The position numbers and the translations under genes were made by a program. Below, one piece after another: positions 1,690 through 40,908 of a stretch of DNA of 42,541 nt (position 1 is the first letter of the stretch; every line of letters begins with the position of its first letter). Below the pieces are notes generated by a model that was not told where the DNA came from, did not search any database, and worked only from the letters and a program-made list of their open reading frames with translations. Source of the stretch: a virus (Duplodnaviria > Heunggongvirae > Uroviricota > Caudoviricetes); the IMG/VR virus record IMGVR_UViG_2529293215_000009; one strand, given 5' to 3'.

Positions 1690-1862
1690 TGTAACCAGGT
1701 GAATCATTTGATACCAACGAGGGTTTTAGTGAAAGGAGGTGAAATCACCTGTAAGATACTGAAATAAAACAGGTGATGTCTGGATGAGCGCTTAAAGTCT
1801 ATTTGATACCGATTGTGCAATAATTAATCGTTTATTCTAAAATCGGCAAAACTTTTGATACT
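1690..1862 (+). repeat. left end (attL-like) with three TTTGATAC(C/T) putative transposase-binding repeats
   Basis: TTTGATACC at 1707..1715 and 1802..1810, TTTGATACT at 1854..1862; same motif in inverted orientation three times at right end; starts 5'-TGTA like Mu. Confidence 0.55.
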
Positions 1863-1939
1863 GCGATCTCAACTTTTTAAAGCGTTTAAAACTTCATTAA
1901 ATCTATATGGCAACTAACATACGGGCCAGCCTCGCCAAA

Positions 1940-2470
1940 CTAACCCGCTTTAGATTCTACCGGATTTGATTGCCTACTTGTCTCGGTTTTTTCCAAAATC
2001 TCTCTGACGCAATCGTCTGGCATATCTACAATCATCAACGCAGCCAGGCGCTTCCTGCCTTCTAGTTGTAATAAATCCTGGTTTTCTTTATCCAGCAGTG
2101 TCAGAACCGTCTCTACACCTTTGCGAGCAAGGAGATTGGTTAACTGTTCTCGTTCGTCTTTCGTAAGGAATGAAAGCATCTGTGTAAGTTGATCTCCCTT
2201 ATCACCAGAACAACCAAAATTACCACAAATACCAACATCGTTTGGTGATTCACCCTTGCCCTCTTTAAGCCACTCAAGACTAACTCCTTCACTTTCAGAA
2301 ATTCGTATAAGGATACTTTCTCTGGGGGCTGGTTGTGTTTGTCCTCCCTTGAAATAGCTGTTTAATGTGTTGATATTGATTCCCCACGCTCTGGCAGCTG
2401 CACTTCTTGAAGGGTAGCGCTTTGTAAGCATTCCAATACGTTCAATAACAGGTTCTTTTCCCTGCGACAT
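1940..2470 (-). CDS. c: prophage repressor (c-like), HTH DNA-binding
   Basis: Minus-strand ORF next to left end and divergent from ner as in Mu; HTH-like SRSAAARAWGININTLNSYFKGG; start taken at ATG 2470 (MSQGKEP) with upstream AGAGG. Confidence 0.65.
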   Translation of the reverse strand: MSQGKEPVIERIGMLTKRYPSRSAAARAWGININTLNSYFKGGQTQPAPRESILIRISESEGVSLEWLKEGKGESPNDVGICGNFGCSGDKGDQLTQMLSFLTKDEREQLTNLLARKGVETVLTLLDKENQDLLQLEGRKRLAALMIVDMPDDCVREILEKTETSRQSNPVESKAG

Positions 2471-2552
2471 AAAGATACCTCTTGGTGCTTTTCTAAGGAA
2501 AGGTTTCTTTCTATTTATCCAATTGAAAAATAAGGATAAAAGCAAAAATTAG

Positions 2553-2587
2553 CCAAAATACCAAAAATACCTTGATTTGGTATTTTT
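2553..2587. promoter_or_regulatory. operator-like repeats between c and ner
   Basis: CCAAAATACC AAAAATACC ttgattt GGTATTTTT: perfect 9-bp inverted repeat with 7-bp spacer plus a direct copy, in the divergent c/ner control region. Confidence 0.5.
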
Positions 2588-2600
2588 AGTGATGCATTAT

Positions 2601-2640
2601 TTACCCGTGCAGATATCCGCACGAATATCCGCGCGGGTAA
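2601..2640. promoter_or_regulatory. second operator-like element (inverted TTACCCG arms enclosing tandem ATATCCGC)
   Basis: TTACCCG at 2601..2607 and CGGGTAA at 2634..2640; ATATCCGC at 2613..2620 and 2625..2632, about 20 bp upstream of ner ATG. Confidence 0.4.
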
Positions 2641-2660
2641 CTTTTTAGAATAGAGGAAGT

Positions 2661-2909
2661 ATGAGTAGAAGAGAAGTTTCAGATCACGATTGGCCGCCTG
2701 AAATCATCAAGGCGCGCTTACACATGGCTGGCTTATCACTGCGCTCTTTATCTTTAAAGGCTGGTTACAGCAGGGATTCGCTGAAAAGCGTATTACGTAC
2801 TCCTTGCCGACCGTATCAGCAAATAATTGCTGATGCTCTTGGGGTATCGCCTGAAGAAATCTGGCCCAGTAGATACCAGGTTAAGAGCTATATGAGAAAG
2901 GCGTCATGA
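2661..2909 (+). CDS. ner: Ner-like DNA-binding regulator (Nlp/Ner family)
   Basis: 82 aa; C-terminal QQIIADALGVSPEEIWPSRYQ closely matches Mu Ner EQIIANALETKPEVIWPSRYQ; position immediately upstream of transposase. Confidence 0.85.
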   Translation: MSRREVSDHDWPPEIIKARLHMAGLSLRSLSLKAGYSRDSLKSVLRTPCRPYQQIIADALGVSPEEIWPSRYQVKSYMRKAS

Positions 2910-2910
2910 T

Positions 2911-39026: not shown

Positions 39027-39272
39027 ATGCCAGAGATTAAAGGCACGGTTACTGAAGAGCTTGTCAAACAGGCACTTTATTCTGAAGAAGTGAACCGCGT
39101 GCTGAAGGCGCAGGTTCGCAAGGATTTTGAGGCACAAATCGACGCATATGTTGATGAAGTGCTGGCCCGAATGGTTGGCCGTTCTCCGGCTGAAAACAGC
39201 ACGGAAAATGATCCTCAACCCGTAGAGCAACCAGAGCCGGTTCAGCCCGGAACTGACGGTACTATGATGTAA
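39027..39272 (+). CDS. hypothetical small acidic protein
   Basis: 81 aa ORF preceded by AAGGAGA. Confidence 0.4.
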   Translation: MPEIKGTVTEELVKQALYSEEVNRVLKAQVRKDFEAQIDAYVDEVLARMVGRSPAENSTENDPQPVEQPEPVQPGTDGTMM

Positions 39273-39590
39273 CAATACCGACCGGCAGGTTTCCCTGCCG
39301 GGTGAGTTTGTTAATGCACGTTTTGTGTATTTTCCCTCCTGGGAGAACAGGCAGGACATATCAGCATCCTGAAACAGGAAGCATTTTTGGGTTTGTATGT
39401 CTTGCCATTTTGAGATCGAGAACGGCGATAGATGAGCTGTAAGGGAGTCTTACAGGCAGGGCAAACAGGCTCTTTCATCCATGATAAAGATCTCCTTTTT
39501 ATGCATCTCTGCTTTACAGGAGACCGGGGAATATCATAGGATACGCCACGAGCTCGAAGTAAAGCATTGATGCAAGTTTTTACAGATTGA

Positions 39591-39616
39591 CCCAGCATAG
39601 TTCCAGCTATGCTGGG
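39591..39616 (+). terminator. intrinsic terminator (10-bp perfect stem)
   Basis: CCCAGCATAG ttccag CTATGCTGGG followed by TTTCACTTTTAT. Confidence 0.6.
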
Positions 39617-39668
39617 TTTCACTTTTATGTAGTATCCTGTTGATTTGAAACATACTACATATACGCGT

Positions 39669-39842
39669 GATCCTACCTTCACTGTATAAAAAGTCAATAA
39701 AATGATCATTTTATGATCGTTTTCACCACCTAACTCTTCGTTTTCTTTAAGTAAATAATCACCTCCCTGAATCATTGTTGATGACTTTTCAATCTATTTG
39801 TTGTATCAATTAAACAAATCGAATCGATCGTTTTTGTCGATC
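39669..39842 (+). promoter_or_regulatory. putative com-mom control region with clustered Dam (GATC) sites
   Basis: GATC at 39669, 39704, 39715 and, within duplicated TCGATCG octamers, at 39826 and 39839; all within 50-220 bp upstream of com. Confidence 0.5.
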
Positions 39843-39889
39843 GATTGCATGAGAAAGGCATCAACAACAAAGCAGGAGGTTATGCGGTC

Positions 39890-40090
39890 ATGTATCGAAA
39901 CATACGGTGCCGACACTGCAATAAGCTACTGGCACGGGCCAGTTTCAGTTATCTGGAAGTAAAATGTCCGCGCTGTAAAACCCTCAATCAAATCACATCT
40001 CCGAGCGCCACAGAGCACCCCACATACACAAGGAAATCCTGTCGTGGGGAACAGAAAGCAAGTCACATCCCGAATCATCAGCACGCCTGA
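39890..40090 (+). CDS. com: Com translational activator of mom (zinc finger)
   Basis: ORF 39845..40090, ATG at 39890; [26 protein letters not shown]...EHPT matches Mu Com IRCKNCNKLLFKADSFDHIEIRCPRCK...EHPT. Confidence 0.85.
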
Positions 40091-40781
40091 ACTTATTCGC
40101 TATAACGACAATATCGTTGGTTATGGCTCCCGTGAGTTGCGGGTTGAGACAATAAGTTGCTGGCTGGCCAGACTGGTCATCGTCAATAAACATTACAGCC
40201 ACCGTTTCGTAAATAACTCCTACCTTCATCTGGGCATATTTTCAGAACGGGAACTTGTTGGCGTAATGCAATGGGGTTACGCCCTTAACCCAAACAGTGG
40301 TGCACGCGTCGTAACGGGTACGCAGAACCGAGAATATATGGAGCTTAACCGGCTATGGCTGCATGACTGTATGCCGAGAAACTCCGAATCAAGGGCAATC
40401 AGTTACGCGCTCAAGCTAATCAGGCAGCTTTATCCGCAGGTACAGTGGGTTCAGTCGTTTGCAGATGAGCGTTGTGGCTGTCTTGGTGTCGTGTATCAGG
40501 CAAGCAATTTTGATTATGTAGGCAGCCATGAATCAATATTCTATGAACTTGATGGCGAGTGGTATCACGAGATTTGCAGGAATGCCATTAAACGAGGCGG
40601 ACAACGAGGTGAACATCTGAGGGCTAATATTGACAGAGCCAGTGTTCATAAGTTCCGACAGTTTCGTTACATCCGGTTTCTGAACAAGAGGGCCAGAAAA
40701 CGCCTCAACACAAAGCTATTCAAAGTCCAGCCTTACCCAAAACCACAAACAGTTAAAACTGGTTTGAAAGAGAGTGAATGA
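40044..40781 (+). CDS. mom: Mom-like DNA modification protein
   Basis: 245 aa ORF overlapping the 3' end of com as in Mu; last gene before right end; GTG start uncertain. Confidence 0.7.
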
Positions 40782-40826
40782 GCGCTTAAAAACTCATTCT
40801 AAAACTCAAAAGAAAAGCGCCGATTT

Positions 40827-40908
40827 AGTATCAAATAAGTTGCGTATCGGCGTTTTTCAGCGGTATCAAATGAAATGCAAATCGGTATCAAAAAAATCGC
40901 CGCGCTAT
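40827..40908 (+). repeat. right end (attR-like) with three inverted copies of the terminal motif
   Basis: AGTATCAAA at 40827..40835, GGTATCAAA at 40862..40870 and 40884..40892; outermost copy extends to AAATCGGTATCAAA, inverse of left TTTGATACCGATT. Confidence 0.55.

Follow-up and report, generated by a model that had tools for sequence, protein, structure and literature searches.

An apparently intact Sp18-type Mu-like prophage inserted in the early region of a lambdoid prophage

Gene content and identity of the element

The window analyzed here is the whole 42,541-nt stretch of IMG/VR record IMGVR_UViG_2529293215_000009. Positions 1690–40909 of the window are occupied by a transposable element of 39,220 bp with a contractile tail and the gene order of phage Mu, namely repressor, ner, A, B, early genes, gam, gemA, activator, lysis, head, tail, S/U, gin, com and mom (Table 1). 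The sequence evidence makes it very probable that the element is a complete, apparently intact Mu-like prophage of the Sp18 type, which moved by transposition into a DUF4752 gene of a resident lambdoid prophage, within the early region of the latter.

The 54 annotated Mu proteins (NC_000929) were searched against the window by tblastn, and 40 of them have matches in Mu order, with 26–76% amino acid (aa) identity and on the plus strand except for the U'/Sv' segment. The matched genes are ner, A (the C-terminal part only), B, gam, gp11, gp12, gemA, Mor/C, lys, gp25–gp30, G, I, T, gp35–gp48, S, U', gin, com and mom. A preliminary description, made by eye from the letters of the sequence, had proposed a complete Mu-like transposable prophage at 1690–40908. 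The colinear Mu matches and a target duplication at both flanks bear this out; the left boundary is exact and the right one lies one base further. The Ner, Gam, Com, Gin, GemA and MuB motifs named in that description all correspond to Pfam families, as does Mom. The transposase, B, Gam, portal and major head proteins all show similarity to their Mu counterparts, although that of the transposase is partial (32%). The proposed order c-ner-A-B through S, gin, com and mom needs two amendments: gin and com are not adjacent, since 3.4 kb (36524–39889) with foreign cargo lie between them, and the Mor motif belongs to a Mor/C-family gene that stands alone, with no separate mor and C. The first gene encodes a cI/XRE-like repressor, Mu c having no homologue.

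Table 1. Features of the Sp18-type element and its flanks in the window
Feature	Position	Strand	Evidence and remarks
Left copy of target-site duplication	1686–1689		CGCC; same four bases at 40910–40913
Left end (5'-TGTAACC...)	1690–1862	+	TTTGATACY at 1707–1715, 1802–1810, 1854–1862
Repressor, cI/XRE-like helix-turn-helix (HTH), 176 aa	1940–2470	-	phrog_3037 'transcriptional repressor', E 1e-62; HTH families at aa 20–78
ner	2661–2909	+	43% to Mu Ner; Pfam HTH_35, E 2.5e-19
Transposase A, 696 aa	2911–5001	+	Pfam HTH_Tnp_Mu_1 (aa 6–143), Mu-transpos_C (aa 533–593); rve weak
B, AAA+ transposition ATPase	5072–6004	+	48% to MuB; Pfam Phage-MuB_C, AAA_22
Five small early genes	6007–7345	+	PHROG; Kil-like 6241–6495, small 'host nuclease inhibitor' family 6497–6778; coordinates from Sp18 proteins
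gam	7357–7887	+	57% to Mu Gam; Pfam Phage_Mu_Gam, E 1.5e-41
Semi-essential early genes	7985–11631	+	gp11-like 8531–9064, gp12-like 9064–9579, D5-like regulator 9583–10134
Variable spot	10141–10807	+	two ORFs (phrog_6925, phrog_6158; function unknown) where Sakai has ECs_5772
gemA	11628–12137	+	44% to Mu GemA; Pfam GemA, E 3e-30
Single Mor/C-family late activator	12207–12632	+	between gemA and endolysin; Mu Mor 26%, Mu C 39%; phrog_532
Lysis genes	12704–13869	+	endolysin 12704–13204, Rz-like 13239–13667, Rz1-like 13627–13869
DksA/TraR-type zinc-finger protein	13879–14106	+	phrog_54, PGAP name; between lysis and head genes
gp25, gp26, gp27 (TerS), gp28 (TerL), gp29 (portal), gp30 (F)-like	14087–19834	+	34–72% to Mu
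tRNA-like gene without anticodon loop	19836–19915	-	80 nt, antisense to late genes, in 121-bp F–G gap; stem out to about 19832–19919
G, virion morphogenesis	19956–20429	+	55% to Mu G
G–I intergenic region	20430–20605		candidate central strong gyrase site, positioned as the Mu SGS
I protease/scaffold, T major head, gp35–gp38-like	20606–24314	+	39–67% to Mu; I 48%, T 67%
Contractile tail and baseplate: L sheath, M tube, gp41, tape measure, N, P, gp45–gp48	24311–33991	+	35–53% to Mu
Tail fibre S, present orientation	33991–34902	+	constant aa 1–180, then Sv, 123 aa; phrog_1833
Invertible segment, 1.4 kb	34508–35908		gix-like sites 34508–34533 and 35883–35908; cores 34520–34521 and 35895–35896
U', sole tail-fibre assembly chaperone gene	34937–35458	-	29% to Mu U'; Pfam Caudo_TAP
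Sv', alternative fibre C-terminus	35538–35894	-	115 aa after inversion; tip 41% to Mu S aa 437–498
gin, serine DNA invertase	35963–36523	+	76% to Mu Gin; Pfam Resolvase, HTH_7
NanS-p-type sialate 9-O-acetylesterase, 679 aa	36623–38662	+	PDB 3pt5 NanS, E 2e-118, aa 104–428; Pfam SASA, DUF6645
DUF1378 and DUF826 genes	38809–39272	+	Pfam; DUF1378 38809–38991, DUF826 39027–39272
154-aa ORF, function unknown	39311–39775	-	phrog_26524; 100% to ECs_4996; frameshifted in strain 2003-3014
com	39890–40090	+	47% to Mu Com; Pfam Zn_ribbon_Com
mom	40044–40781	+	76% to Mu Mom; Pfam Mom, E 4e-77
Right end (...GCGCTATA-3')	40827–40909	-	TTTGATACY at 40884–40892, 40862–40870, 40827–40835
Right copy of target-site duplication	40910–40913		CGCC; alignment of insertions

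ORF, open reading frame.

Prophages of this type have been recorded before under the name Sp18, from E. coli O157:H7 Sakai, and the type is an ordinary one, though a few details of it have been little described. Sakai Sp18 (NC_002695.2, 5040971–5079729; coordinates from PMC7430833) aligns with window positions 1690–10140 and 10808–40909 at 98.8% nucleotide identity. The preliminary description had suggested such a whole-element comparison and had itself overlooked the identity with Sp18. Full-length counterparts of 55 of the 56 Sp18 proteins are present in the window at 89–100% identity, ECs_5772 being the sole absentee, and the ORFs of the element are intact. About 98% of the length is aligned, and both elements share the nanS-p cargo, TG...TA ends, a 4-bp target duplication and the orientation of a minimal invertible segment. 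They differ at three places. Window positions 10141–10807, with ORFs of 103 and about 116 aa, correspond to a stretch of some 200 bp with ECs_5772 in Sakai; the F gene (91% aa identity) and the tRNA-like region between F and G (72% nucleotide identity) are present as a different allele; and the insertion site is the DUF4752 gene of a lambdoid prophage in the window and sorM of the sorbose operon in Sakai.

Together with Sakai Sp18, the closest known systems are the Sp18-like 'Mu-like phages' of E. coli that produces Shiga toxin (STEC), of groups O157, O111, O26, O103 and CC119. Of 5,426 complete E. coli genomes searched by megablast, about 220 contain 80% or more of the element's left 25 kb. 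The best match of window positions 1690–25000 is O157 AR-0428 (99.4%), and the best matches of the overlapping positions 20000–40909 are O111:H8 and cattle strains (99.8–99.9%); the change of best match between the two queries suggests recombination among Sp18-like phages. Published data describe Sp18 as predicted to be intact, with DNA that is efficiently packaged and is neither circularized nor mitomycin-inducible, and with an invertible host-specificity region distinct from that of Mu (PMC2669165). Sp18-like phages occupy variable sites, often within other mobile elements including Shiga toxin (Stx) phages (PMC10132054; PMC7430833). One of the copies examined here sits inside the Stx2c phage JNE082796.

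Termini, target site and completeness

The boundaries of the element were established by aligning both ends in nine copies: the window, O26 RM10386, 2013C-3252, O157 AR-0428, O157:H7 7409, 13E0780, 07_3636, the copy in phage JNE082796, and Sakai Sp18. The nine copies represent nine different insertion sites, each with a short direct duplication. All of them start with 5' TGTAACCAGG and finish with GCGCTATA at the 3' side, giving termini of the form 5'-TG...TA-3', and the megablast matches in the complete E. coli genomes begin at 1690 and end at about 40909 regardless of the flanks. Every one of the nine copies has A at position 40909 and the corresponding left-flank base varies, hence this A belongs to the element; on the same ground an end at 40908 with a 5-bp duplication is ruled out. 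The duplication comprises 4 bp in eight of the insertions and 5 bp in one (O26 RM10386). The depositors of GenBank record LC727881 likewise annotated a 4-bp duplication. A literature search for 4-bp duplications in Mu-like phages found nothing relevant.

The motif TTTGATACY has eight matches in the window against 0.38 expected by chance, and six of the eight are located in the two ends in inverted orientation. They lie 18–26, 113–121 and 165–173 nt from the left terminus and 18–26, 40–48 and 75–83 nt from the right one. Mu also has three repeats per end with like spacing; we take the arrangement found here to recall its sites L1–L3 and R1–R3. By this analogy with Mu L1–L3, the repeats are presumed to be transposase-binding sites.

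Removal of positions 1690–40913 restores an ORF of 105 aa that matches the entire DUF4752 model (E 7.5e-39). In the flanking sequences (1–1689 and 40914–42541) this ORF is preceded by the C-terminus of lambda P, DUF1627 and DUF4406, and followed by an Ead/Ea22-like gene. The site lies between these genes and thus belongs to the early region of a lambdoid prophage.

Several observations weigh against describing the element as a complete prophage of the Mu kind. At the right terminus TA stands where CA is canonical, and the duplication has 4 bp instead of 5 bp; in Mu the target duplication is 5 bp and the termini are TG...CA. Neither the repressor nor the transposase is of the Mu type, so that details of the early switch may differ from those in Mu. 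The regulatory cascade, the packaging mode and the gyrase site considered below are all drawn by analogy with Mu. Finally, a search with the junctions to host sequence found the same insertion site in none of the 5,426 E. coli genomes.

The unusual terminus, together with the fact that most prophages of enterohaemorrhagic E. coli (EHEC) are defective (PMC2669165), could also point to a grounded remnant that only looks complete. We regard this as very unlikely. All Sp18 genes but one are full length, and the missing one is a gene of the variable region that has been replaced by two ORFs; the two ends are intact, as is the target duplication; and a TA terminus common to nine copies at nine sites is compatible with transposition. 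Moreover, Sp18 DNA has been found to be packaged (PMC2669165).

Departures from Mu and the cargo module

The transposase follows the domain plan of MuA, yet throughout its length it belongs to a non-MuA lineage. MuA can be aligned with it over aa 516–655 only, at 32% identity. The nearest phage transposases are those of Pseudomonas VW-6B (48%), Mannheimia vB_MhM_3927AP2 (45%) and the D3112/DMS3/JBD group (about 30%), aligned over 84–92% of the length; the likeness to these phages was assessed by the transposase alone, and phages of the D3112 group are siphoviruses. The view of the preliminary description that the repressor and the N-terminal region of the transposase differ from those of Mu is correct and, for the transposase, understated. 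The repressor is identical to Sakai ECs_4943, and tblastn found no homologue of Mu c in the window. No similarity was detected between the repressor and the N-terminus of the transposase, so the DNA-binding domain that the two proteins share in Mu is not detectable here; a common domain of this kind was considered and rejected. A Pfam search of the repressor found no LexA-like peptidase domain, which fits the published lack of mitomycin induction.

Only one activator of the Mor/C family is encoded. It is nearer to Mu C than to Mu Mor, and both Mu proteins match this same gene; the tblastn search of the window found no homologue of a second activator or of Mu gp18–gp20. We infer that the transcription cascade is probably two-tiered rather than three-tiered. 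No Mu homologue was detected for the DksA/TraR-type gene downstream of the lysis genes. The lysis genes themselves were assigned by 39% identity to Mu Lys, PGAP names from a 99.4%-identical copy and a PHROG family of Rz-like spanins. Among the early proteins gp11 and gp12 share 68% and 54% aa identity with Mu, and the gp35–gp48 proteins share 35–61% overall. A PADLOC search of ten early and cargo ORFs, those of the variable spot included, found no match to defence systems.

The spacer between G and I is located at 48% of the element length, as the G–I spacer of Mu is at mid-genome. It shares with the Mu spacer the block CG.GATTTT..AACC.GTATTTAACGG, which ends in the exact 11-mer GTATTTAACGG. 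By analogy, the spacer is a candidate gyrase site.

Downstream of the tail genes lies a Gin/Hin-type switch of the tail fibre, comprising a serine invertase, inverted 26-bp sites with matching cores, and two in-frame C-termini. The ends of the segment form a 182-nt imperfect inverted repeat that terminates in gix-like sites, which were read from its ends: TTATCGATAACG-TC-GGTTTACGGGAA at the left and ATCCCGTAAACC-GA-GGTTTCAGGGAT at the right. A search with the Mu gix consensus allowing up to three mismatches gave no match in the window, the sites found here being more diverged. The constant part of S corresponds to Mu S aa 1–191 with 48% aa identity. When the segment is flipped in silico at the cores, S (303 aa) is converted into an in-frame S' (295 aa) with the first 180 residues unchanged, and U' starts 80 nt past the S' stop. 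Among 226 genomes, about 15 contain this junction in its flipped form with an identity of at least 95%, which means that the inversion happens in nature. The Mu segment is 3 kb long and carries S/U and S'/U', in contrast to the 1.4 kb, two short tips and one chaperone of the window element. The two tips, of 123 and 115 aa, are homologous; U' is co-oriented only with Sv', and S in the orientation of the window has no co-oriented chaperone.

The 3.4-kb interval between gin and com, absent from Mu, begins with a NanS-p-type protein, the C-terminal part of which matches the NanS-p structure (PDB 6yp6, E 1e-111 over aa 459–674). The same two-part protein is known from Stx phages (PDB 6yp6; chromosomal NanS, 3pt5), where it is likewise followed by DUF1378 and DUF826 genes. 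The NanS-p, DUF1378 and DUF826 genes are a cargo module acquired from lambdoid phages of the Stx type. In those phages the module is usually adjacent to stx; here it lies in a transposable Mu-like phage. In the literature library searched, no paper connects nanS-p with Mu-like phages. The cargo is at the same place in Sakai Sp18, with proteins 100% identical, and has just 78–81% nucleotide identity to the stx-adjacent copies of lambdoid phages; the two facts together point to an old capture that is a property of the lineage. They also bear on the idea that the element is a new hybrid, produced by recombination of a Mu-like phage with the lambdoid prophage around it, for which the Stx-type cargo and the location inside a lambdoid prophage would speak. 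Such a recent origin is most improbable: Sakai Sp18, with the protein-identical cargo, is located in the sorbose operon and outside any prophage, the cargo shares no more than 78–81% identity with the Stx-phage copies, and transposition has left clean junctions with the surrounding prophage.

Mu itself thus provides the general plan and differs in its Mor plus C activators, MuA-lineage transposase, c repressor, the presence of gp18–gp20, and the lack of both the gin–com insert and a tRNA-like gene between F and G. A reading of the element as Mu, as D108, or as a close strain within the genus Muvirus in the strict sense finds some backing in the same gene order and in the 76% identity of Gin and Mom, and is nonetheless next to impossible. 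By megablast, D108 matches the left 25 kb over no more than about 2%, with nucleotide identity of about 72%; most proteins are 35–60% identical to their Mu counterparts, and no similarity to the Mu versions can be detected for the repressor or for most of the transposase. The TG...CA ends, 5-bp duplication, c-type repressor, Mor-then-C activation and high nucleotide identity of Mu in the strict sense are all lacking. The claim of the preliminary description that this is a distinct member of the Mu family therefore stands. The Yersinia Mu-like phages vB_YpM_5, vB_YpM_6 and vB_YpM_Tongde show patches of about 81% nucleotide identity in the transposase gene (3447–4934) and in the head region from F to T, and cover only about 6% of the left 25 kb.

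For a Mu-like prophage of the Sp18 type, the following life cycle can be proposed by analogy with Mu. The cI-like repressor would hold the early operon silent. Once repression is lifted, replicative transposition from the TG...TA ends would be driven by Ner together with the DDE transposase A and the AAA+ ATPase B, and linear DNA would be protected by Gam. The single Mor/C-type activator could then switch on the lysis, head, tail and com–mom operons. DNA would be packaged by a headful mechanism from the left end, with host flanks attached, and its adenines would be modified by Mom. Inversion of the 1.4-kb segment by Gin would exchange the two tail-fibre tips.

The tRNA-like element between F and G, and implications for the Sp18 lineage

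The gap between F and G contains an element that is tRNA-like and is not a tRNA. An extended acceptor-like stem is present along with a D-arm and a T-arm; the 7-nt anticodon loop of the tRNA cloverleaf is missing, and a short hairpin of the UNCG tetraloop type, with a UCCG, UUCG, UCAG or UCAA loop, replaces the anticodon arm. Its score against the Rfam tRNA model (RF00005; gathering threshold 29) is 30.9 bits in a local search, and the Sakai allele reaches 31.4 bits in spite of only 72% sequence identity. The match was obtained in the local search only, as a search of the whole window at Rfam gathering thresholds gave nothing. ARAGORN predicted no tRNA in the window or in four related loci. 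In one genome PGAP has labelled the element tRNA-OTHER.

A pattern scan of IMG/VR contigs revealed 21 further loci, which together with the window and the related loci give eight distinct variants; the pattern required D-loop and T-arm words, so that the conservation of those parts is partly by construction. Across the eight variants, three pairs of the 9-bp acceptor-like stem are changed on both sides. The cells of this stem are paired in 99.3% of cases, compared with 32–53% when the partner columns are slid, and its G-U pairs are legal on the minus strand only. The position between F and G is kept in phages with F and G proteins 72–77% identical to those of the window. Mu and Yersinia phage Tongde lack the element, and their F and G genes overlap. 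A promoter-like site, recognized by a consensus match only, is located on the minus strand at 19954–19925, a few bases upstream of the stem. Nothing relevant on tRNA-like elements of Mu-like prophages came out of a literature search.

It is quite possible, though we would stop short of calling it probable, that the 80-nt element is a functional, previously undescribed phage RNA kept by compensatory changes, and that with this RNA, its TG...TA termini and a non-MuA transposase that makes a 4-bp stagger, the Sp18 lineage is mechanistically distinct from Mu. We speculate that the RNA could serve as a processing signal, as a decoy for tRNA-directed enzymes, or as an antisense regulator at the F–G junction.

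As an addition to the catalogue of prophages the finding carries little weight, given that the Sakai genome sequence of 2001 already contained the Sp18 type, that an experimental study of it followed in 2009, and that STEC genomes now show it routinely. Its biological interest lies elsewhere. As an active transposable phage, the Sp18 type integrates into genes as well as other prophages, Stx phages among them, and in this way reshapes EHEC genomes. The NanS-p esterase, which serves as a fitness factor during growth on sialic acids of mucus, is here carried by a vehicle that moves by transposition. The 4-bp duplication and TA terminus, the conserved tRNA-like RNA, the presence of just one late activator, and a minimal invertible segment that encodes one chaperone are features that could extend knowledge of transposable phages beyond Mu.

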